A stretch of 64,000 nt of DNA from contig JBCCQY010000009.1 of assembly GCA_039208735.1 (NCBI GenBank), positions 1 through 64,000 of the forward strand, written 5' to 3'. Below are positions 37,272 to 50,549 of this stretch, one piece after another; within the stretch, counting starts at the first letter, position 1, and every line of letters starts with the position of its first letter. Below the pieces are notes generated by a model. It made no database searches and was not told the origin of the DNA. It saw only the letters and a program-made list of their open reading frames with translations. The translations under genes and the position numbers were made by a program. This stretch comes from Myxococcota bacterium. GTDB lineage: Bacteria; Myxococcota_A; UBA796; GCA-2862545.

Positions 37272-40200
37272 ATGTCGCAACTGCCGCATTATCGCTCGAA
37301 ACATCAGATCCGCGTGGTCACTGCAGCGTCGCTGTTCGATGGACATGACGCTGCGATCAATGTGATGCGCCGGATCCTCCAGTCCTCCGGGGCAGAGGTC
37401 ATTCACCTCGGCCACAACCGCGCCGCCCTCGAAGTCGTCGAAGCCGCGATTCACGAGGACGCCCAGGCCATCGCGATCTCGTCGTACCAGGGGGGCCACA
37501 TGGAGTACTTCCGCTACATGCGCACGCTCCTCGATGAACGAGGAGCCAAGCATGTGCGGATCTTCGGCGGAGGCGGCGGTGTCATCGTTCCGGACGAGAT
37601 CCGGACCCTGCAGGACGAAGGAGCGGTCGATCGCATCTATTCGCCTGAAGACGGCCGGCGCATGGGGCTGCAAGGCTTGATCGACGACTTGCTTCAACGC
37701 AGCGACTTCGATCCGGTCGAGCGTGCACCGGCGACCCTCGAAGCGGTCGAGCAAGGCGACCTTGGAGCGCTGGCGCGGTTCGTGACCCGTGCCGAAGCCG
37801 ATGTGGCCGACCCGGGTAAGCACCTCGAGGAGATTCACCGGGAAACCCTGGCTCGCTGGGGTTCCAAAGCCGTTCCGGTCTTGGGCATCACGGGCACGGG
37901 AGGGGCCGGGAAGTCGTCGCTCACCGATGAGTTGCTGCGTCGATTCTTGCTTGACCGGGATGCGATTCGAATCGCGATCCTCTCCATCGATCCCACCCGC
38001 AAGCGCACCGGTGGGGCCTTGCTCGGCGACCGCATCCGCATGAACGCCATCAAGGATGGACGCATCTTCATGCGGTCGTTGGCCACTCGAAGTCAACGGG
38101 GTGAGCTTTCGGCCGCGACCGAACCTGTGGTGGCGCTGTGCAAAGGCGCTGGCTTCGACCTGATCATCGTCGAAACCTCGGGCATTGGCCAGGGAGATGC
38201 TGGCATCGTTGAGACCAGCGACGTGTCGATGTACGTGATGACCCCCGAGTACGGAGCCCCGAGCCAGCTCGAGAAAATCGATATGCTCGACTACGCCGAT
38301 CTGGTTGCCATCAACAAATTCGAGAAACGAGGCGCCGAAGATGCGCTGCGCGACGTTCGCAAGCAGGTCCGGCGAAACCGAGGCCTGTGGGACGCCGAAG
38401 ATGTTGAGCTGCCGGTGTACGGCACCATTGCATCGCGGTTTGCCGACGACGGGGTGGATGCGCTCTACGTCGCGCTGGTCGGAGCGCTCGCCCGGGTGAC
38501 GGACCAGCCCTGGCCCACGCAGGTCTCGGTCGATGACAACACCCGCGCGTCGTCGGCATCACGAGCGCTCATCCCCGGTCCTCGTCAGCGCTACCTCGCG
38601 GAAATCGTCGAGACAGGGCAGCGCTATCGTGCACAGTCTTTTGCCCAGGTGGAGGCGGTCCGGAAGGTTCAGCACCTCGAGACGGCACGAGCGGAACTTG
38701 CCGACACCGAGGCGGCGCCGCTGGTCGAGTCCAAGCTCGACGAAGCCCGGAGCAAGGTTGAACCTGCCGTCGCCGACTATGTTGCGAAGTGGCCTAAGAC
38801 CGTGGCCGCGTTCGCCGGTGACACCTACACCTACACGGTGCGGGGCCGAGAGATTTCACAGCCCGCAAGCCACACCTCGTTGTCGCATCAGCGGATTCCG
38901 CGCATCGCCTTGCCGACCACCCAAGACCATGGCGAGATCGTTCGCTACGGCAGGCTCGAGGGCGTGCCTGGGTCCTTCCCGTTTACCGCCGGGGTATTCG
39001 CTTTGAAGCGGCTCGACGAAGAACCCAAACGCATGTTCGCGGGGGAAGGCGGACCCGCCAAGACCAACGCGCGCTTCCACTACCTGTGCCAGGACGAACC
39101 TGTCTCTCGACTTTCGACCGCCTTCGACTCGGTGACGTTGTACGGCGAAGATCCAGACGAACGGCCCGACATCTTCGGCAAGGTGGGCGAATCGGGCGTG
39201 AGCGTGCCGCACCTCGATGACATGAAGATCTTGTACTCGGGGTTCGACCTTTGCGCGCCCACCACCTCGGTTTCGATGACCATCAACGGTCCCGCTCCCA
39301 TTCTGCTCGCCCTGTTCTTCAACACGGCCATCGATCAACAGGTCGAGAAGTTCGTCGCTGCCCATCAGCGGTCCCCCTCCGAAGAGGAACACCGCGACAT
39401 CGCCGCTCGGGCCGTTCAGTCGGTTCGCGGCACCGTCCAAGCCGACATCCTCAAGGAAGATCAGGCGCAGAACACCTGCATCTTCTCAACCGAGTTTGCC
39501 CTGCGCATGATGGGCGACATTCAAGCGTGGTTCGTCGATCATAAGGTTCGCAACTTCTATTCGGTGAGTATTAGCGGCTACCATATCGCGGAGGCCGGCG
39601 CGAACCCCATCACTCAGCTCGCGTTTACGCTGGCCAATGGCTTTACGCTCGTTGAGTACTACCTGGCCCGCGGCATGGACATCGACGCCTTTGCGCCAAA
39701 CCTCTCGTTCTTCTTCAGCAACGGGTTGGACCCCGAGTACACGGTCATCGGGCGCGTGGCGCGGCGAATTTGGTCGGTCGCCATGCGGGAACGCTACGGC
39801 GCCTCGGAGCGCAGTCAGAAGCTGAAGTACCACATCCAGACGAGCGGCCGGTCGCTGCACGCACGTGAGATTCAGTTCAACGACATCCGCACCACCCTGC
39901 AGGCCCTCCTCGCCATCTCGGACCACTGCAACAGCCTGCACACCAACGCCTACGATGAAGCCATCACCACGCCTACCGAGGAGTCGGTCCGCCGTGCCAT
40001 GGCGATTCAGATGATCATCAACCGCGAACTTGGGCTTGCGAAGAACGAAAATCCACTTCAAGGCAGCTACTTCGTCGAGTACTTGACCGACATGGTGGAA
40101 GCAGCGGTTTGGGCCGAGTTCGATCGGCTATCCGACCGGGGTGGCGTGCTGGGGGCGATGGAACTTCAATACCAGCGGTCGCAAATCCAGGAGGAGTCGC

Positions 40201-40535
40201 TGTATTACGAGCGTCTCAAGCACGACGGCACGCTGCCCATCATCGGGGTCAACACCTACCTCGATCCGGCAACCACGTCGGACGACTGGGAGCCGCCCGA
40301 GGTCGAATTGCGTCGGTCCACGAACGACGAGAAGGTCGCCCAAATCGAGTCGGTGCGCGCCTTCCAGAGCAAACACGCCGAGACGGCGCCCGAGGCCCTG
40401 AAGCGTCTGCAGCACGTCGCGTTGTCGGGCGGCAACATCTTTGGCGAACTGATGCAGACCGTTCGGGTGGCGACCCTTGGACAGATCAGCCGAGCGCTGT
40501 ATGCGGTCGGTGGAGAGTATCGAAGGAACCTGTAA
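37272..40535 (+). CDS. icmF: Fused isobutyryl-CoA mutase / MeaB-type GTPase
   Basis: 1087 aa. B12 domain FDGHDAAIN, GTPase GTGGAGKSS and NKFE, mutase RMFAGEG, GTVQADILKE and SISGYH. Confidence 0.96.
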   Translation: MSQLPHYRSKHQIRVVTAASLFDGHDAAINVMRRILQSSGAEVIHLGHNRAALEVVEAAIHEDAQAIAISSYQGGHMEYFRYMRTLLDERGAKHVRIFGGGGGVIVPDEIRTLQDEGAVDRIYSPEDGRRMGLQGLIDDLLQRSDFDPVERAPATLEAVEQGDLGALARFVTRAEADVADPGKHLEEIHRETLARWGSKAVPVLGITGTGGAGKSSLTDELLRRFLLDRDAIRIAILSIDPTRKRTGGALLGDRIRMNAIKDGRIFMRSLATRSQRGELSAATEPVVALCKGAGFDLIIVETSGIGQGDAGIVETSDVSMYVMTPEYGAPSQLEKIDMLDYADLVAINKFEKRGAEDALRDVRKQVRRNRGLWDAEDVELPVYGTIASRFADDGVDALYVALVGALARVTDQPWPTQVSVDDNTRASSASRALIPGPRQRYLAEIVETGQRYRAQSFAQVEAVRKVQHLETARAELADTEAAPLVESKLDEARSKVEPAVADYVAKWPKTVAAFAGDTYTYTVRGREISQPASHTSLSHQRIPRIALPTTQDHGEIVRYGRLEGVPGSFPFTAGVFALKRLDEEPKRMFAGEGGPAKTNARFHYLCQDEPVSRLSTAFDSVTLYGEDPDERPDIFGKVGESGVSVPHLDDMKILYSGFDLCAPTTSVSMTINGPAPILLALFFNTAIDQQVEKFVAAHQRSPSEEEHRDIAARAVQSVRGTVQADILKEDQAQNTCIFSTEFALRMMGDIQAWFVDHKVRNFYSVSISGYHIAEAGANPITQLAFTLANGFTLVEYYLARGMDIDAFAPNLSFFFSNGLDPEYTVIGRVARRIWSVAMRERYGASERSQKLKYHIQTSGRSLHAREIQFNDIRTTLQALLAISDHCNSLHTNAYDEAITTPTEESVRRAMAIQMIINRELGLAKNENPLQGSYFVEYLTDMVEAAVWAEFDRLSDRGGVLGAMELQYQRSQIQEESLYYERLKHDGTLPIIGVNTYLDPATTSDDWEPPEVELRRSTNDEKVAQIESVRAFQSKHAETAPEALKRLQHVALSGGNIFGELMQTVRVATLGQISRALYAVGGEYRRNL

Positions 40536-41173
40536 TGCTTCGGCTGAAACGCTCCACGCGCGCAGGATGGGTTCAGGCGGTGCAGGCCGACCTACCCACC
40601 CTGGTGCTGGATCACGCTCACTGTGAAAAAAAGGCCGCTTCGACGGCCCTGAACTTGATCTTCCGCTATCAAGACCATCCGCATCTCATGGTTCCGCTGT
40701 CGGAGGTGGCTCGGGAGGAGCTGGAGCACTTTGAGCTGGTGCTCGGGTTGCTGTCGGAGCGTGAGTGGCCCTTTGTGCCCCTTGAACCAAGCCCCTATGC
40801 GGGTCTGCTCTATCGGAACGTGCGCAAGGCCGAGCCGCATCGTCTGCTCGACACGTTGCTGGCTTGCGCGCTCATCGAGGCGCGGAGCTGCGAGCGCATG
40901 AAGCGACTGGCCACCGAACTCGAGGATGCTGAACTACGTGCACTGTACGGAAGTTTGCTCGAGAGCGAGGCTCGCCATCATGCGCTGTACGTCGATCTCG
41001 CGCTGCACGACTTCGATCGGCAAACCGTGATGACCCGGCTCGACGAACTTGCCAACGCCGAGGTTGAAGCGCTTTCGGCGACGCCCTTTCAATTTCGTGT
41101 CCATTCGCTTGCCGAACCCGAGCGGATGCGTTCCCCGGACGCCAACGACATGGGAGAGCGCCGTGCGCCGTGA
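40535..41173 (+). CDS. miaE: tRNA-(ms2io6A37) hydroxylase
   Basis: DHAHCEKKAA, EELEHF, IEARSCER and ESEARH di-iron motifs; TAATG overlap. Confidence 0.93.
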   Translation: MLRLKRSTRAGWVQAVQADLPTLVLDHAHCEKKAASTALNLIFRYQDHPHLMVPLSEVAREELEHFELVLGLLSEREWPFVPLEPSPYAGLLYRNVRKAEPHRLLDTLLACALIEARSCERMKRLATELEDAELRALYGSLLESEARHHALYVDLALHDFDRQTVMTRLDELANAEVEALSATPFQFRVHSLAEPERMRSPDANDMGERRAP

Positions 41174-41797: not shown

Positions 41798-42616
41798 CTA
41801 CAGTTCAAAGCAGTCGGCAATGCCGTTCATGTTGAGATCGACGGTGTTGTCGAGTTTGGGGCAGACGTCGCAGTCATCCGGGATGTCATCGAGGTCCCGA
41901 TCCAATCGGTCGTCGGCGCCGGGGCAGACGTCGCAGGCGTCGGGAACGCTGTCCTGGTCTGAATCCAGGAAATTGGGACCGGACGAGCAGACGTCACAGC
42001 CGTCGGGGATGCCGTCAGCGTCGATATCGATCGCATCGTCGGCGTTCGGGCAAGCGTCGCAGTCGTCCGGCACACCATCTGCGTCGCTGTCGACCGTATC
42101 GTCCCCCAGCAGGCAGAGGTCGCAGGCGTCAGGCACGCCATCGCCATCTGCGTCGCTGTCGACGGTAGACGCCTCGCAGACCACTTGGGCCTCCAAGGTC
42201 ACCTCGAACGACGTTCCCTCGGCGCCCTGAACGTTGACCACATCGGTGTACACGCCATAGGTCGGGTCGCGGAGTTCGACCGTCACCGCGATTCGTTCGC
42301 CGGCGGCAAGCTCCAACGGGTTTTCGGGCGAAACGTCCGCATCCACCACGAAGGGGCCAGGGACGGCCGACGTCAGCGCGAGCTGAGTCACCCCCGTTTC
42401 GTTGGCGCAGCGATTCGTGAGGAAGATCGTGTCGCTGATCGGTCCCTCAGCCTCCAGGACCGCGAGGGGCCATTCGCCGAAGTCTACTGACTCTGGCATC
42501 ACTTCGAGGCATTGGACCTCCGGATCTGGGGAGGTCACGGCTGCAGTTTCTGTGGGTTCCTCCTGCACAACACAACCGATGCTGCCTATGAGAAACCAGG
42601 GCACAAACTTGGACAT
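41798..42616 (-). CDS. Lipoprotein with Ig-like domain and thrombospondin type-3 repeats
   Basis: SIGC lipobox and about six DxDxDGxPDxCDxC units. Confidence 0.85.
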   Translation of the reverse strand: MSKFVPWFLIGSIGCVVQEEPTETAAVTSPDPEVQCLEVMPESVDFGEWPLAVLEAEGPISDTIFLTNRCANETGVTQLALTSAVPGPFVVDADVSPENPLELAAGERIAVTVELRDPTYGVYTDVVNVQGAEGTSFEVTLEAQVVCEASTVDSDADGDGVPDACDLCLLGDDTVDSDADGVPDDCDACPNADDAIDIDADGIPDGCDVCSSGPNFLDSDQDSVPDACDVCPGADDRLDRDLDDIPDDCDVCPKLDNTVDLNMNGIADCFEL

Positions 42617-42669: not shown

Positions 42670-42688
42670 GTCTGCGGTATCCGCAGAC
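42670..42688. promoter_or_regulatory. Perfect inverted repeat in a divergent promoter
   Basis: GTCTGCGG-TAT-CCGCAGAC. Confidence 0.45.
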
Positions 42689-42724
42689 GGAGTGGGTGGG
42701 TCTATGAGGTCCCGAGGAGTCGAC

Positions 42725-44596
42725 GTGACCGACGACAACCCACTCCACCAAGTCGTGCAACGAGCCCAGAAAGGCGATCTCGCCGCGTTCGATGAACTCG
42801 TTCGTGCCTCCCGCACCCGCGCCACCGCGGTTGCGTGGGCGCGGCTGGGTTCGGAAGAGCGCGCCGAAGAGGCCGTTCAAGAGGCTTTCATCGATGCGTG
42901 GCGCCTGCTGCCTACGCTCCGGGAACCCCGGGCGTTTCGAGCCTGGCTGAAGTCGATCGTTCGTAAGCATGCGGACCGTCGAACGCGCCGGGCTCGGCTC
43001 GAGACTGTCCCCCTCGACGAAGGACGGGCGGGACTCGAACCGGGTGAACCGGACGAGGTTGCCACGGTCGTTCGCCAGGCGGTGGCGCAGCTGCCCCCCC
43101 ACCAGCGCAATGTCGTCGAACCCTTCTACCTCCACGGGATGTCCACCAAGGCCATTGCGCAGTCGCTCGGCTGCTCGGTGGCTGCCGTCAAGAAGCGCCT
43201 GTTCGATGCGCGTCGACGGTTGCACCCCCATCTGGAGTCTTGGATGACCGATACCCTTCCCCACGTGGTTCGCGCGTTCGTTGCAGCGCGCACGGGCGAT
43301 TCCGCTCACCTCGCGCAAGCCCTCACCGCCCACCCGGAACTCACGGAGGCCACGGATCCTCCGGACGAGGCTCGCGTCGTCGAACACTACCTGCCGGGCC
43401 ACCCGACGGCCACGCTGCTCCTCACCGCGGTCATCCACGGCCATACGGGCATTGTGGACCAGGTGTTGGCGAGCGGCGCCGACGTCAATGGTGGGCGGCC
43501 GGCGGGAGCGCAAACGCCGCTGATGCTGGCGGTCCTCCAGTCGCGAGGGGAGATGGTCGAACGTCTTCTCGCGGCCGGAGCCGACGTCCATCGAGTGGCG
43601 AATCGGGGCTTCACGGCCTTGCACTTCGCTGCCCTGCGGGCCGATCGAGCCCTGATGGATCGACTCACGGTGGCGGGCGCCAACGTCGAGGCGCGGTCGG
43701 CCAATGGTTGGACGGCGGCGGATTGGCTCGCCCATGCCGAAGCGGTTCCTCGACCTCGTCCCGAGGGGGCGCTGCGGATCGTCGACCCGCACGGCAACGC
43801 GCTCGATGGTGGGCCTCCCTTGGTTACGCCCGAACGGCAGCCGCGGGCGCCAGGTCCCATCGTCGAGACCGGCATTAAGCCCATCGACCTGTGGGCTCCT
43901 CTCGCGAACGGGCGGGTCACGCGCGTCGTCGGGGGACCGTTTGTCGGCAAGACGGTGCTCCTCGCCGAGGTGATGCAGCGCTTCGCGCCGCCCGTACTCG
44001 CGACGTTCCTCGACCGCAGTTGGTCGGTGAAGGACTTCGAGCATGTGCTGCGCGAATGCAACGTTCATCCTGGAGCCCGAATCTTGATTGCCAGCGACCC
44101 GAGCGGGGCCGCTACTTTGGCCCGGAGCGCGCTTGCACATGCCGAAGCACGGGGCTCGATCGTGGTGGCGGATGACCGGCTGATCGAGGAGCTTCGCGCC
44201 GCGAGACCCGGCGTTCCTGTTCTCGCATTCTCCCCGAACGCTCATGAAGTGGACCCGGTGCTCACGGCCGACGCACAGTGGGTGTTGTCGCCCGAACTCG
44301 CCAAGGCTGGCCGATGGCCCGCCATCGACCCTCGCGCGAGTCGTCTTGCCTGGTCGAGGCCACCCGAAGAGAAAGCACTGGTTGAGGCGGCTCGGGCCTT
44401 GTGGGCCGAGTCGGGCCCCCGCGCGGACCGACTCCACGCCTACCTGACCCAGCCCTTTTGGGTAGGGGAGTCCTATACGGGGCTTCCCGGCGTGACCGTG
44501 CCCTGGACGGCGACGCGAGCCGATGTGGCACGGATCGTATCGGGAGCCGTGGATGACCGGCCGGTCGACGAGCTGCGTTATCGCGCGTCGCTCTGA
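42725..44596 (+). CDS. ECF sigma factor fused to ankyrin repeats and an F1-ATPase beta-like domain
   Basis: GAGGAG RBS then GTG. Sigma2 AEEAVQEAF..FRAWL, sigma4 IAQSLGCSVAAVKKRL..AR, ANK TPLMLA and TALHFA, F1-beta ETGIKPIDL, GGPFVGKT, WPAIDP and YLTQPFWVGESYTG. Confidence 0.9.
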   Translation: MTDDNPLHQVVQRAQKGDLAAFDELVRASRTRATAVAWARLGSEERAEEAVQEAFIDAWRLLPTLREPRAFRAWLKSIVRKHADRRTRRARLETVPLDEGRAGLEPGEPDEVATVVRQAVAQLPPHQRNVVEPFYLHGMSTKAIAQSLGCSVAAVKKRLFDARRRLHPHLESWMTDTLPHVVRAFVAARTGDSAHLAQALTAHPELTEATDPPDEARVVEHYLPGHPTATLLLTAVIHGHTGIVDQVLASGADVNGGRPAGAQTPLMLAVLQSRGEMVERLLAAGADVHRVANRGFTALHFAALRADRALMDRLTVAGANVEARSANGWTAADWLAHAEAVPRPRPEGALRIVDPHGNALDGGPPLVTPERQPRAPGPIVETGIKPIDLWAPLANGRVTRVVGGPFVGKTVLLAEVMQRFAPPVLATFLDRSWSVKDFEHVLRECNVHPGARILIASDPSGAATLARSALAHAEARGSIVVADDRLIEELRAARPGVPVLAFSPNAHEVDPVLTADAQWVLSPELAKAGRWPAIDPRASRLAWSRPPEEKALVEAARALWAESGPRADRLHAYLTQPFWVGESYTGLPGVTVPWTATRADVARIVSGAVDDRPVDELRYRASL

Positions 44597-45078
44597 CGGG
44601 TGAGCCGGAGCACGTTCCAGGTGTTTGCACCATGATTGTGGAGGTGCAGCACCAGCGGGGCTCCGACCGCCGCGGCCTGCGGCACGGTGATCAACTCAGC
44701 GTAGGCGGCCGCCACTGACGGAATGGGGACGGTGAGGTCGAGCCACAGCACGCCGTCGACGCTGAAGGCCACATGGGCCTCGGCCTCTTCGAGGGCGGCG
44801 AGATCGTTGTGCCAAAACACGATCTCAACTTCGTCGCCGGCCTCGACCGGGGCCTGCAGCGGTTGCTCGAGCACGACGTAGTTGCAGATGCCGGTATCGA
44901 TCTCAATGGTGGAGCCTTCCACCAAGACGCCTCCAAGTGGGCACTCGGTGGCGTCTTTTCGATGGTCGGGGAATGGGTCGTCCGCCACGGCGGCTTGCCG
45001 CCAACCGTCCATCGTTGCGAGTTCCATCGCCGGACGCCCTTCGCCCGCACAGCCGACCCACCCCAACAGCAAGATCAT
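44578..45078 (-). CDS. Hypothetical lipoprotein
   Basis: WVGC lipobox and C-terminal HLHNHG; ATGA-coupled to the upstream gene. Confidence 0.75.
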   Translation of the reverse strand: MILLLGWVGCAGEGRPAMELATMDGWRQAAVADDPFPDHRKDATECPLGGVLVEGSTIEIDTGICNYVVLEQPLQAPVEAGDEVEIVFWHNDLAALEEAEAHVAFSVDGVLWLDLTVPIPSVAAAYAELITVPQAAAVGAPLVLHLHNHGANTWNVLRLTRQSDAR

Positions 45079-48108: not shown

Positions 48109-48320
48109 GCGCGGATTCTATGTCAGCGACCTCCGAAATTTCGAGGCCTGCGCATTTTCCACGGCAGCCTTGCCTCTCGGTGAGAGCGACGCTGACAAGT
48201 TGATCTTGGTCCATGCATCCTGTCGGGGCGGCGAAATCCGAAGAGGGACGGCTCCCAACAAGTCGGCTCCTGACCGGGCCTTTGAGGGATGACAGGTTAC
48301 GGCAGCCCGCTGGAGGGCGC

Positions 48321-50549
48321 ATGGCAACCGACGTTCGCGGAGGTACCGTCGCGAAGGACCGGCTCTCGGCTCTGATGAGCCCGGTTTGGACAGGTTTGGT
48401 CGCCGAGCGGGGACCTGGTGCGGCACGCGCGGCATTGACGACGCTGCTCAACGCGGGGGCGCTGGATGGTTGGTGTGGACACACCACGCACGGCGACCGG
48501 GCTGTGGGAGCCGTGGCGGGGGTGGATGCCCCGGCGGCGTTGCGCCGACAGCTTGCGTCGGTCGTGGTGGGGCGACGTGCGCTGTGGCCTGACGATCGCC
48601 GCATGCTCGAAGCGGATGCGCTCACCGGAGACGACGACCCGCGCGTGGAGCCTGGATGCGCGGATCTGGACGGCCCGCGCGCGGGGTGGTGGGGGGTTCG
48701 CTTGCTGGTCGAAGCGCCTCCCGTTTCGAGGTCGGAGCTGGCCACCCGGCTCGCCGCGTTGCCTCGGGCGTCGGTGCGCGCCGCATTGCGCCACATCCTG
48801 GAGACCGCTCCCGTTCCCGACCCAGTCGTTGACTTGGTGATCGCCGCATTCGAGATCGTCGGAGGCCCGGGTCGGGAGGCCGCAGCGCTGGCTCGGCTCG
48901 CTGCCGACGAACACCTGCCCACCCAACTGCGCGAAGTGGCGTGGCGCGTCCTCATGGACCACGACGGCGTCGATCTCGAAAAGGTGTTCGACGAGGTTGG
49001 AGCCTCTCGCATCACGGAGCTTTCGCAATTGGGATTCGCGGTCGGGGTTCGACGGCTGGGCGGTTCCACCGAATTGTCGCGTGACCTGGTGGACCAGGTG
49101 CGGGCCCTCGATCCCACCCGTCGAAGGGACTTGCTTGAGATGATCGAGGACGCCCGTCGCATGGAGGGCATTCCCGCCGCTGCGCTCTACAGCCCTTTGT
49201 TGGTGGCTCGAATTGCCCCTGAACTCGACGAAGCGCTGGTGCGGTCCTTGGTCGAGGACGGGGGACGGTTGGCCGAGGATGCCATTCGGCGCACGCTGGA
49301 TGAAGAACCGGATTCCGTGGCGCAGGCCCGCCTTCGTCGAGCGCTCCTCCTCATGCGGACGCGTCGCATCGAGCCGCCTGTTGACCGGGGAGACGGGGCG
49401 CGTGCGTGGGTGGGCCTTTGTGATGGGCGAGGGGACTTTCCGGTCGTGCTCGCGACGCCAAATCCTCGGGGGCAGCATCGGGTGGTTTCGCTATCCGTTC
49501 GGGCGGGCGGCGAAGTACGCGATGGGTTTGTGCTCGATGATTTGCCCACTGCACGGTTGAAGCTGATGCTCGAGCAATACGGTGCCACTGCCCAATTGTT
49601 CGAGGTTCGCCCCGCCGAAGCGGCGGCTTGGGTAGCGGTTGGCGTTCGCCAAACCCAAGGTGGATTGGCGGGGTTGCCGGGCTCGTTGCAGCGAGCGAGT
49701 GACGAGATGCTGCGTCACCTGCATCACCGGGTTGTGCATGAGGATGGGCCCGAAGGGGCTCGCATCACGCTGGCTGCGTGTCGCGCGCTGTTTCGCCGTC
49801 CTCGGCTCCAAGGGTGGTGCCTCGACGCCAGCGACCGCGAGGCCTGCGACATCGGGGAGGCTCCTCGGCTGGCGAGTGCCTTCGCCATTTGGGCCCGTGA
49901 AGGGGCGCGTAAGGTCAGTCAGACCAGACGAATCCGTCAGCGACTGGCGGGCATGACGCGACACCTTGCAGAAGTGTTGCAGACGGTCGAAGACCCAGAA
50001 GCGCCCTTGGCTCTTGGAATTGCCCGAGCCCTCGCCTCGGGTCGAGGGGAGACGTTTTTGCGAGTGGTTCTCGAACACACCGCCTTTCATGCGCTCCCAC
50101 CCGATGAGCCGATGCCCCTTCGGTTTGGGGACGAAGGACAGCGCGAGGACCTTCGGCGGATCTTGTCACCACGGGTGCCCTCGCACCTCGACCTTGCGAC
50201 CCTCGACGTCATTGACTGTGTGCTGTCGTCAGAGCCGTTGTTGGTCCAAAATGAGGGGGAACTCGCCGACCTACGGCCCGATCTTCGGCGTTCTGTGCTG
50301 TTCGAAGCGGGTCGCGCCATGGTCGAAGTGTTGCGCACGTCGGACGCCGACTTGGCCACCGTGGAGGACGCCCTCGCGCGGGGGGGCCTTTCGGAAGCGT
50401 CGGCCGCCCGTGCGGCCCAACGTCTGGTGAGGTTGGGCCAACAGTTCCGTGCCGAAGTCTGTGCGGAGTGTCCGGTTGCGTGTTGGCGGACCCCGAATCG
50501 GCCCGCGGGGGGGCGCTGGAGAGGGCCGGGACATCCCGCCTATCGGTAG
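48321..50549 (+). CDS. Large helical hypothetical protein with C-terminal CxxCPxxC
   Basis: GGAGGG RBS, long open frame and CAECPVAC. Start is uncertain. Confidence 0.7.
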   Translation: MATDVRGGTVAKDRLSALMSPVWTGLVAERGPGAARAALTTLLNAGALDGWCGHTTHGDRAVGAVAGVDAPAALRRQLASVVVGRRALWPDDRRMLEADALTGDDDPRVEPGCADLDGPRAGWWGVRLLVEAPPVSRSELATRLAALPRASVRAALRHILETAPVPDPVVDLVIAAFEIVGGPGREAAALARLAADEHLPTQLREVAWRVLMDHDGVDLEKVFDEVGASRITELSQLGFAVGVRRLGGSTELSRDLVDQVRALDPTRRRDLLEMIEDARRMEGIPAAALYSPLLVARIAPELDEALVRSLVEDGGRLAEDAIRRTLDEEPDSVAQARLRRALLLMRTRRIEPPVDRGDGARAWVGLCDGRGDFPVVLATPNPRGQHRVVSLSVRAGGEVRDGFVLDDLPTARLKLMLEQYGATAQLFEVRPAEAAAWVAVGVRQTQGGLAGLPGSLQRASDEMLRHLHHRVVHEDGPEGARITLAACRALFRRPRLQGWCLDASDREACDIGEAPRLASAFAIWAREGARKVSQTRRIRQRLAGMTRHLAEVLQTVEDPEAPLALGIARALASGRGETFLRVVLEHTAFHALPPDEPMPLRFGDEGQREDLRRILSPRVPSHLDLATLDVIDCVLSSEPLLVQNEGELADLRPDLRRSVLFEAGRAMVEVLRTSDADLATVEDALARGGLSEASAARAAQRLVRLGQQFRAEVCAECPVACWRTPNRPAGGRWRGPGHPAYR

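Follow-up and report, generated by a model that had tools for sequence, protein, structure and literature searches.

The gene at 42725–44596 on the forward strand raises the question of what a relative of the F1 ATP synthase beta subunit does at the end of an ECF sigma factor. It lies in a 64,000-nucleotide stretch of a Myxococcota contig (JBCCQY010000009.1), referred to here as the window. The initial annotation, made from the letters alone, proposed a sigma–ankyrin–beta fusion that senses adenine nucleotides and couples transcription to energy charge.

Domain architecture and genomic context

The gene is a single unbroken frame with a GTG start, in agreement with the original reading. Its features are as follows.

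42714..42719, +, RBS GAGGAG ahead of the GTG start (sequence)
42725..44596, +, gene for an ECF sigma–ankyrin–F1-beta-like putative pseudo-ATPase, 623 aa
42797..42997, +, sigma2, residues 25–91 (Pfam PF04542 Sigma70_r2, E 5e-10)
43070..43222, +, sigma4, residues 116–166 (Pfam PF08281 Sigma70_r4_2, E 3e-14)
43253..43744, +, ankyrin module, residues about 177–340 (Pfam Ank and model helix pattern)
43760..44593, +, putative F1-beta-derived pseudo-ATPase domain, residues 346–623 (profile, PDB-sequence, Foldseek, tree and alignment)
43931..43954, +, P-loop GGPFVGKT, residues 403–410 (alignment)
44012..44014, +, Asp430, replacing the catalytic Glu at the beta E188 position (aligned with AtpD of the same genome)
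44309..44332, +, motif of the adenine pocket, with W531 matching beta Y345 (alignment)
44447..44482, +, loop of the adenine lid, with F578 and Y584 matching beta F418 and F424 (alignment; also predicted ankyrin interface)

The Pfam search that the annotation had proposed matched all four expected families (sigma2, sigma4, Ank and ATP-synt_ab). Sigma2 and sigma4 are present and sigma3 and sigma1 are absent, which is the domain content of an ECF (group IV) sigma factor, and the NCBIfam profile TIGR02937 matches with 68.3 bits (cut-off 42.9). The Ank families match residues 227–333 (best E 8e-12) and, together with the helix pattern, bear out three repeats plus caps: a degenerate N-terminal repeat, three canonical repeats and a C-terminal half repeat. 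ATP-synt_ab matches residues 383–439 at 29.8 bits against a cut-off of 29.5, and the beta-like sequence blocks quoted previously, including the P-loop at 43931–43954, were all found.

The gene is flanked by a divergent gene (41798–42616, −) and a convergent gene (44578–45078, −). Neither an atp gene nor an anti-sigma gene adjoins it, as had been noted, and the genome's own atp operon lies on contig C164. The window neighbours matched none of 10 related loci, and the neighbourhoods differ. The orientation of the next gene is mixed.

Authenticity and distribution of the fusion

The fusion is real and not a chimeric assembly, because homologues from other records share 67–71% identity, one genome of the same genus carries a homologue at 53% identity and contigs assembled from another study's run bridge both fusion junctions. 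The annotation had itself named a chimera as grounds for rejection; the independent genomes and the bridged junctions answer this. The search for the architecture across genomes returned at least 41 three-part homologues (sigma, ankyrin and beta all present in 41 of the 119 homologues listed), spread over several phyla, with Myxococcota, Chloroflexota, Gemmatimonadota and Pseudomonadota MAGs as hosts. The distribution is patchy (the gene occurs in one of 40 relatives), and all eight fusion-bearing genomes checked keep their own atpA and atpD. Sigma–beta fusions that lack ankyrins also exist (four among the 119 listed homologues and seven more), so some members of the family do without an ankyrin relay. 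A phylum search at E 1e-60, with two candidates scored per genome, also catches ordinary AtpD, which makes its tally of 314/401 uninformative; seven of its matches are at fusion level (the own genome and six others). The ESM Atlas holds two clusters of 67 and 56 members with a feature score of 0.98 and no name attached. The annotator knew of no characterised protein with this architecture, and our literature search likewise found no description; the type was not found in the available portion of the extension listings of PMC7826278, whose tables may list others.

A degenerate F1-beta domain with a conserved adenine pocket

The C-terminal 284 residues have F1 beta as their top match among PDB sequences (E 2e-14, against only 1.5e-4 for FliI), match NCBIfam atpD at E 4e-15 (alpha at 0.05) and, as a predicted structure, find F1 entries exclusively as best Foldseek matches (E 3e-13). 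In a quick tree with AtpD, AtpA and FliI, as the annotation had suggested, a branch with SH-aLRT 94 sets 39 fused beta domains apart; they stand beside AtpD, with FliI and AtpA far away. These comparisons indicate that the last domain is descended from beta (AtpD) and not from alpha, FliI or Rho. The kinship with beta that had been recognized thus holds, but calling the domain collinear with beta passes over large deletions. The domain is 26% identical to the genome's own AtpD. It is without the N-terminal barrel, its sleeve segment is shrunk from 34 to 6 residues and the DELSEED helix-turn-helix from 20 to none; in an alignment of 51 members the rotor-contact segments are lost. This member has Asp in place of the catalytic Glu and lacks R260, and it keeps GKT (K409 and T410), R431 and the Walker-B residue D483.

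The same alignment (336 aligned columns, median conservation 0.16) has only 26 columns with a conservation of at least 0.8. Near-invariant among these are G161 (51/51), V164 (48/51), an aromatic residue at 345 (50/51) and P346 (51/51), followed by A347 (48/51), Q416 (50/51), F418 (42/51) and an aromatic residue at 424 (43/51). In the P-loop, G408 and V411 are invariant in the family and K409 and T410 are variable. The P-loop Lys is kept in 27 of the 51 members and absent in 24, the Thr is kept in five, the catalytic Glu in 16 and R260 in none; Lys and Thr occur together in two members, and Lys, Thr, catalytic Glu and Walker-B Asp together in none. The GKT motif singled out earlier is therefore present in this protein but atypical of its family. 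According to the available portions of PMC11845608 and PMC3603450, adenine is held in F1 by Y345 and F424, the beta-phosphate is contacted by P-loop backbone amides, and the gamma-phosphate and Mg are held by the Lys, Thr, Glu, R190, R260 and the alpha Arg finger. What decays in the family is this gamma-phosphate/Mg set, with the adenine pocket and the P-loop backbone near-invariant. The pattern indicates that the domain is a pseudo-ATPase that has kept the adenine pocket and lost the catalytic and rotor-contact parts.

The adenine pocket is the best-kept part of this domain, which makes nucleotide binding plausible. The conserved columns may nevertheless reflect something other than ligand binding, since many of the top columns (ETGIK, Gly and Pro) clearly serve the structure and the lid loop doubles as a predicted ankyrin contact. 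The aromatic residues at 345 and 424 are kept in four and three, respectively, of the four ankyrin-less members of the alignment, so the pocket is not kept solely for ankyrin binding.

Predicted packing of the ankyrin module

Complex prediction of residues 1–341 with residues 346–623 gave a score of 0.70 (best of three controls 0.00), against a mark reached by 116 of 157 solved pairs and two of 215 mismatched pairs; both chains come from a single polypeptide, split in two, and their alignments are paired, a setting that tends to give a pass. The runs share at least 36% of their contacts and the partner pLDDT is at least 85. In the prediction, the ankyrin groove covers the face of the beta domain that bears the nucleotide site, including P-loop residues 405 and 410, the helix after the catalytic position and the adenine-lid loop, and is predicted to sit roughly where alpha sits in F1. 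Conserved ankyrin-side residues are R189 (R/K in 37/42), R305 (33/42) and W334 (39/42), of which R189 appears in the interface list together with the P-loop residues. In the model, the last sigma4 helix continues without a break as far as residue 190 (H152–190), so that one continuous helix is predicted to tie sigma4 to the ankyrin cap, consistent with the earlier view of the ankyrins as the link between the parts. The confident interface contains no sigma residue (1–176), and the proposed path to sigma therefore depends on this one predicted helix.

Predicted promoter, possible internal start and search for target genes

Three further features bear on expression.

42676..42703, +, predicted autoregulatory ECF promoter, PWM match extending to 42706 (held-out PWM)
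42670..42688, strand not assigned, mismatch-free 8-bp inverted repeat whose loop is spanned by the −35 element (sequence)
43234..43246, +, RBS GGAG within the gene, with an in-frame ATG (Met174), where sigma meets the extension (in excess of synonymous expectation across the clade)

The predicted promoter consists of a −35 element GGTATCC (42676–42682), a 15-nt spacer and a −10 element GGGTCT (42698–42703). It scores 12.3 bits with a PWM built from 32 of 40 other clade loci, the window being left out; when the upstream region was shuffled 1000 times, the 99th percentile was 8.7 and the maximum 12.4. The motif, with its spacing unchanged, is found in the window, in locus G002 and in five of six further held-out loci (clade motif GGTAWCC-N15-GGSWCT), and such a bipartite motif upstream of the gene is what is expected of an autoregulated ECF factor. 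Generic sigma70 promoter and terminator scans returned 0 and 0. No RNA dataset was listed as containing the gene, which is neutral as to its expression.

Met174 may act as a second start that yields just the extension. An internal Met is present in 34 of 40 clade genes, and the internal RBS averages −5.96 kcal/mol against a synonymous expectation of −4.40 (26 of 32 genes; no simulated mean as low in 200). For this gene the value is −5.9 kcal/mol, and 19% of synonymous shuffles are equally strong.

Scanned with the PWM, the own genome shows 91 sites above 13 bits without a convincing upstream set, and the gene's own promoter is not among the 45 sites listed. Exact-pattern counts show no excess over reversed-pattern controls in five genomes (96 versus 111) or in five more (7 versus 12). 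Target genes were thus not found in the own genome or in ten others, and the sole promoter found is the gene's own.

A sigma lineage with many cargoes

ECF264 comprises Paenibacillaceae ECFs with a DUF1835 extension and the promoter GTAACCTT / GGCACATT (PMC7826278). In a quick tree of sigma cores, six sigma-DUF1835 Paenibacillus proteins, used as stand-ins for ECF264, nest (SH-aLRT 99) within a wider clade (SH-aLRT 92) that holds the present protein outside the six. By these stand-ins, the sigma core probably belongs to the ECF264 lineage. Both share the promoter type and spacing, with a variant motif here, and lack an anti-sigma; ECF264 differs in its DUF1835 extension and Firmicutes host, in place of ankyrin and F1 beta in other phyla.

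An extension is present in 146 of the best 150 clade representatives. Its cargoes include the PheRS alpha core, SecA, UvrA, FliG, FliM, PilM, citrate synthase, the RNA-binding part of Rho or its ATPase part with an altered P-loop, and a His-kinase without its His. SecA and UvrA retain their Walker motifs, several cargoes look intact and several non-beta cargoes recur in clusters. In the quick sigma tree, the basal positions are taken by a paraphyletic set of beta carriers. Dozens of unrelated cargoes on one sigma lineage open decoy and generic-graft readings, and a core that tolerates them does not need a specific allosteric path in every fusion. What appears to be new here is that a sigma core probably of the ECF264 lineage comes with that lineage's predicted autoregulatory promoter and an internal RBS and ATG, and that the lineage is fused to dozens of cargoes.

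Proposed mechanism and alternatives

A conserved C-terminal extension with no adjacent anti-sigma gene is the arrangement of a one-component ECF, and both were found. The reading that we favour, with confidence a little short of even, is a one-component, self-inducing ECF gated by non-catalytic binding of adenine nucleotide to the F1-beta-derived domain. A monomeric pseudo-ATPase would bind the nucleotide without turnover, the family-invariant residues being those that would hold Mg-free ADP in F1; as K409, T410, R431 and D483 are kept, this member may also take Mg-ATP/ADP. With the ankyrin groove clamping the nucleotide-site face, as modelled, occupancy would open or close the beta cleft and shift the ankyrin module and the sigma4 helix, which would allow sigma to engage core RNA polymerase and to drive its own promoter along with a very small regulon. 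Of the nucleotide-sensing sigma factor first proposed, the one-component ECF, the F1-beta extension and plausible binding find support; coupling to energy charge, with the ATP/ADP ratio as signal, stays hypothetical, and no target genes were found.

It is unlikely that the ankyrin-beta part is a ligand-free, dead-enzyme scaffold that holds sigma off or on until a partner protein or proteolysis releases it, with the extension from the internal start titrating sigma in trans as an anti-sigma. Phosphate-binding residues are dispensable in about half of the family, the internal Met and stronger-than-expected RBS would supply the free extension, and the available part of PMC8999054 proposes protein-interaction and proteolysis modes for ECF42/57 and ECF48/52/53. 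Against this, the pocket aromatics, which face the solvent, persist at an overall identity of about 30%, even in members without ankyrins, and no confident sigma contact is predicted for the beta domain.

We consider it unlikely that the beta copy is bait for an attacker of F1 (an inhibitor, toxin or phage protein) whose binding frees sigma to make more bait, partly from the internal start, with the other cargoes baiting attackers of other machines. The near-universal extensions copying many machines, the self-directed promoter and the patchy distribution fit this, but a bait should track the host AtpD, to which the domain is only 26% identical. Moreover, the subclade lacks the C-terminal helices that face rotor and inhibitor, ankyrins are predicted over the nucleotide face, cargoes such as SecA and UvrA look intact and no defence genes were found adjoining this or related loci. 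Aurovertin was considered as the attacker and rejected: of the hot-spot positions on F1 beta given in the available part of PMC9615146, Q411 is not among the six commonest residues and R412 is kept in 11 of 51 members.

A slow but active ATPase, with Asp for Glu and an ankyrin Arg as finger, whose hydrolysis times sigma activity, is improbable: this member retains GKT, R431 and D483, R189 is placed with P-loop residues and E190D slows F1 rather than killing it (available part of PMC11845608), but no member has the four catalytic residues together, only two keep Lys and Thr, and R260 is deleted in all. That a sigma gene fortuitously landed before an atpD fragment, or was joined to it by assembly, is very improbable and largely refuted for sigma–ankyrin–beta, since the single origin of the fused domain, its several phyla and strongly patterned conservation, the intact atp genes and the bridged junctions outweigh the four of seven three-part loci split over frames in one set, the junction RBS and ATG as a possible capture relic, and the capture of downstream genes by duplicated minimal ECFs proposed for Planctomycetes (available part of PMC7671368), which would account for origin and not for retention.

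Comparison with known systems

In ECF41 (SnoaL), ECF42 (TPR), ECF57 (WD40) and ECF238 (CorE) a fused C-terminal domain likewise replaces the anti-sigma, and the proximal ECF42 extension is predicted to touch sigma4 (available part of PMC8999054), like the long helix here. Here, the 450-residue extension is unrelated, has two modules and a housekeeping-enzyme origin, and the promoter is different. AtpD shares the fold, adenine pocket and P-loop backbone, whereas the fused domain lacks the barrel, sleeve, DELSEED, catalytic Glu and R260, has no alpha or gamma genes nearby and is predicted to carry ankyrins on its nucleotide face. Planctomycetes ECFs, as far as the available part of PMC7671368 describes them, likewise attach many unrelated extensions to a single sigma lineage and show no conserved context; those captures are recent, lineage-confined and possibly random, whereas the beta fusion appears old, cross-phylum and selected.

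Plant NLRs with integrated domains join a constant signalling core to copies of diverse host proteins, some of them degenerate. The resemblance to the present lineage lies in this grafting; the output here is transcription initiation, and any tie to attackers or defence would be hypothetical. A broader generalization, which we regard as unlikely, is that the ECF264 lineage is an 'integrated-domain' platform in which a self-inducing sigma core grafts copies of the cell's own machines as sensors or baits, with sigma–ankyrin–beta as its oldest form and an output that is mainly itself, including free cargo from the internal start; here, a dead F1 beta would read adenylate status or attack on ATP synthase into transcription.

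If the nucleotide reading is true, a pocket derived from ATP synthase would be linked directly to transcription initiation, and the protein would be an F1 beta that is naturally monomeric, capped by ankyrins and has nucleotide binding uncoupled from rotary catalysis. In a wider view, ECF264, a published group known only from Paenibacillus, is probably just the exposed part of a large lineage, most of it in uncultured phyla, with one shared predicted promoter and dozens of grafted domains; a single reporter promoter would make all of these testable and could become a modular biosensor chassis.

Domain organization and genomic context

The fusion gene has 623 open codons, with a GTG start five bases 3' of a GAGGAG. 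All of the blocks quoted in the initial annotation are present in it, and the proposed sigma2, sigma4, ankyrin and ATP-synthase assignments hold, with all four types matched by Pfam.

42725-44596, forward strand: fusion ORF
residues 25-91: sigma2 (Pfam)
residues 116-166: sigma4 (Pfam)
residues 227-333: ankyrin repeats (Pfam)
residues 383-439: ATP-synt_ab (Pfam, barely above the cut-off)

Among PDB sequences, F1 beta is matched by the C-terminal 284 residues, in three pieces that keep its order (E = 2e-14; FliI, 1.5e-4), and among NCBIfam models the match is to atpD (4e-15; alpha, 0.05). The AlphaFold2 model (pLDDT 86.8, pTM 0.78; 42-row alignment) returns F1 entries in Foldseek; the Atlas model is weaker (pTM 0.56). 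The sigma, ankyrin and beta parts are similar in GC and GC3. One flank is a divergent gene with TSP3-like repeats; the other is a convergent gene, with no family match, that overlaps the stop by 19 bases. Elsewhere in the window are an ordinary B12-binding/MeaB/methylmalonyl-CoA-mutase fused gene followed by miaE (37272-41173) and a 778-aa ORF with no Pfam match at E 1 (48213-50549).

Distribution and origin

A homologue search of 8000 candidates gave 755 proteins at E 0.001; 120 of them, including the query, were listed. Among the 119 other matches listed, 41 carry sigma, ankyrin and beta parts, 24 sigma and ankyrin, four sigma and beta, one ankyrin and beta, and 49 ankyrins only; the HMMs used were built partly from many of these rows, and the precomputed PF00006 column concurs for most. 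The members with a name come from MAGs of Myxococcota, Chloroflexota and Gemmatimonadota. Of 80 GTDB loci, three hold the fusion in a single frame (Aggregatilineales, Pseudomonadales and a proteobacterium) and four split over frames. Near the host it is patchy, occurring in one of 40 relatives and in six of 400 genomes of the phylum (two candidates scored per genome only). Contigs from sequencing run X3, which belongs to a different study from X1, the likely source run, span both the sigma/ankyrin (43179-43297) and ankyrin/beta (43477-43796) junctions. With independent genomes and spanning contigs both found, the fusion is a family and not an assembly chimera.

Separate alpha and beta genes with full scores are present in all eight of the fusion-bearing genomes that were examined; in the source genome the atp operon sits on contig C164. 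Another genome has an additional atp-like cluster (G044:C4:189435-208382), in which a single beta gene is whole and several alpha-like pieces are broken over frames. In a quick IQ-TREE tree with AtpD, AtpA and FliI, a branch with SH-aLRT 94 separates 39 fused beta domains from the rest and joins among AtpD, while a long branch sets FliI and AtpA apart; because of long branches the exact attachment is unsure. The accessible text of PMC7671368 proposes that Planctomycetes ECF extensions were fortuitous captures, by analogy a fair model for the origin of this fusion.

The beta domain

We aligned 51 fused beta domains to the AtpD of the source genome, with bovine residue numbers set by motif and cross-checked against the two F1 papers cited below (PMC11845608, PMC3603450). 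Positions kept are G161 (51/51), V164 (48/51), an aromatic at 345 (50/51), P346 (51/51), A347 (48/51), D349 (46/51), Q416 (50/51), F418 (42/51) and an aromatic at 424 (43/51). Others have decayed: K162 is retained in 27, T163 in five, E188 in 16, R189 in 26, the Walker-B Asp in 31 and R260 in none. Lys and Thr are jointly kept only in the query and the homologue P0005, and Lys, Thr, Glu and Asp together in no domain. Across 336 columns the median conservation is 0.16, with 26 columns at 0.8 or above. The 34-residue sleeve segment is cut to 4-16 residues in all 51, and the DELSEED helix-turn-helix is missing from the query's subclade; the claimed collinearity with beta therefore stands for the three matched pieces but not for these elements.

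In F1, according to the accessible text of PMC11845608, adenine stacks on Y345/F424 and P-loop backbone amides bind the beta-phosphate, while the gamma-phosphate requires the P-loop Lys, R190, R260 and the alpha Arg finger. Y345/F424 hold Mg-free ADP after the Mg ligands move away (PMC3603450, available part). The aurovertin site was taken from the available part of PMC9615146. By sequence, the fused family keeps the adenine/beta-phosphate set and sheds the gamma-phosphate set; the domain is probably a pseudo-ATPase that retains the adenine pocket but no longer works as F1 beta. Several of the kept residues are structural, and the conservation of the adenine-lid loop may have a second cause, as this loop also lies in the predicted ankyrin interface.

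Predicted contacts between the parts

Residues 1-341 and 346-623 of the query were folded as two chains, with three controls. The score was 0.70 (best control, 0.00), against a mark that 116 of 157 solved complexes and two of 215 mismatched pairs attain; since the chains are halves of one polypeptide and the paired alignment was our own, a pass is easier. Runs share at least 36% of contacts, with partner pLDDT of at least 85. The predicted interface comprises, on the ankyrin side, the groove (268-274, 292-305, 325-337), an insert loop (218-224) and the end of a long helix (186-190) and, on the beta side, P-loop residues 405/410, 427-448, Walker-B 483, 504-506 and the lid loop 582-589. R189, R305 and W334 on the former and R443, E444 and G446 on the latter (query numbering) are well kept. 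Residues 1-176 are absent from the interface list, which is no evidence against contact. In the monomer model the recognition helix of sigma4 and the ankyrin cap are connected by a single helix (152-190). In these models the ankyrins would take the place of alpha over the nucleotide site and could pass its state on to sigma4. Ankyrin-less sigma-beta fusions exist, so such a relay would not be universal.

Predicted promoter and possible internal start

Genes of the clade, the sigma-core lineage around the query that appears to include ECF264 (Paenibacillaceae ECFs with a DUF1835 extension), share the upstream motif GGTAACC-N15-GGG(A/T)CTT; the ECF264 promoter is given as GTAACCTT / GGCACATT in the accessible text of PMC7826278. 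With 32 of 40 loci as training set, the seed pattern picked after viewing the loci and the window left out, a matrix scores 12.3 bits at 42676-42706 (shuffle 99th percentile 8.7, maximum 12.4) and 13.5 in the genome G002. Six further loci were scored: five reach 9.5-23.6, and in the remaining one the spacer is 16 nt long. An inverted repeat (42670-42688) overlaps the predicted -35 in the window, and one of different sequence lies over the predicted -10 5' of the G002 homologue (L084). No regulon emerged from a motif search of the source and other genomes, so targets other than the gene itself would be few or looser in motif.

A Met lies within 14 residues after sigma4 in 34 of 40 clade genes. 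A ribosome-binding site of -5 kcal/mol or better precedes 30 of these 34 Mets versus 32 of 132 other internal Mets, and the junction mean is -5.96 versus -4.40 expected (32 genes, best-of-several bias removed; not one of 200 simulated means was this low). In the window, GGAG stands at 43234 and ATG at 43244, which is not significant for the query alone. The junction signal may mark a second start, or it may be left over from gene capture.

The wider sigma lineage

A profile built from 40 sigma cores was run against 1.84 billion representatives. Of the best 150 matches, 146 extend more than 50 residues past the core; of the 150, six carry beta, 27 carry ankyrins only and 117 fall in neither class, some being contig-end fragments. 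We grouped 228 extensions into 62 clusters and named cargoes by Pfam on 92 picked proteins, many of which had no Pfam match except sigma. The cargoes so named are FliG, FliM, PilM, SecA, UvrA, PheRS core, Rho RNA-binding domain, bifunctional nuclease, citrate synthase, radical SAM, GNAT, APH, methyltransferase, nucleotidyltransferase, HisKA-HATPase, receiver, TPR, HEAT, DUF1835 and DUF6178.

In-frame fusions to near-complete SecA (L010:337-3243), UvrA (L028:2056-6267), citrate synthase (P0184) and the Rho ATPase domain (P0168) were each seen once. Walker motifs are retained in the SecA and UvrA cargoes; the citrate synthase appears intact, judged by motif. In P0168 an Arg follows the P-loop Lys, and in P0153 a Lys occupies the H-box His position. 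Recurrent cargoes include a bifunctional nuclease, in two copies in some (P0188/P0167/P0178 cluster, 14), a FliG C-terminal-like domain (P0289/P0214, 9) and a 350-aa cargo with no Pfam/NCBIfam match among those shown (P0256, 17). In Poribacteria, two or three long-extension ECF genes stand in tandem (L011:5980-11604, L023:50-5676, L049:2233-6739), one with many ankyrin repeats and the others with an unnamed ~300-aa extension. Separately, the source genome has two adjoining full-length UvrA-like matches (G000:C146:15425-21034), which could be genes in tandem or a single doubled UvrA, and two Chloroflexia genomes have short Rho-like ATPases without the RNA-binding domain (L102, L130, L135), one of the copies being split between frames.

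A quick tree of sigma cores has 33 of 73 inner branches open and rows chosen by two different searches; in it, a branch with SH-aLRT 92 sets the 62 clade rows apart from the rest. Because six DUF1835 proteins (SH-aLRT 99) nest among beta carriers and one inner group (93) takes in most other cargoes, the tree suggests that sigma-ankyrin-beta is the old form of the lineage.

Functional interpretation

Literature searches, with subscription papers poorly covered, returned no description of the sigma-ankyrin-beta architecture. The accessible text of PMC7826278 mentions neither "ankyrin" nor an ATP-synthase extension, that of PMC8999054 neither "ankyrin" nor "decoy", and that of PMC8195603 does not cover the architecture. 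As a putative one-component ECF the query would resemble ECF41 and ECF42; its lineage appears to include ECF264, yet it lies outside ECF264 as defined.

That an adenine nucleotide is the signal is a real possibility, if a slightly doubtful one; that the signal is specifically energy charge, as initially proposed, is rather unlikely. That the beta domain is a decoy is more improbable still. Taking together a non-catalytic adenine-nucleotide switch, a ligand-free tethered regulator and an integrated decoy or sponge, it is likely that the dead beta domain regulates the sigma factor to which it is fused.
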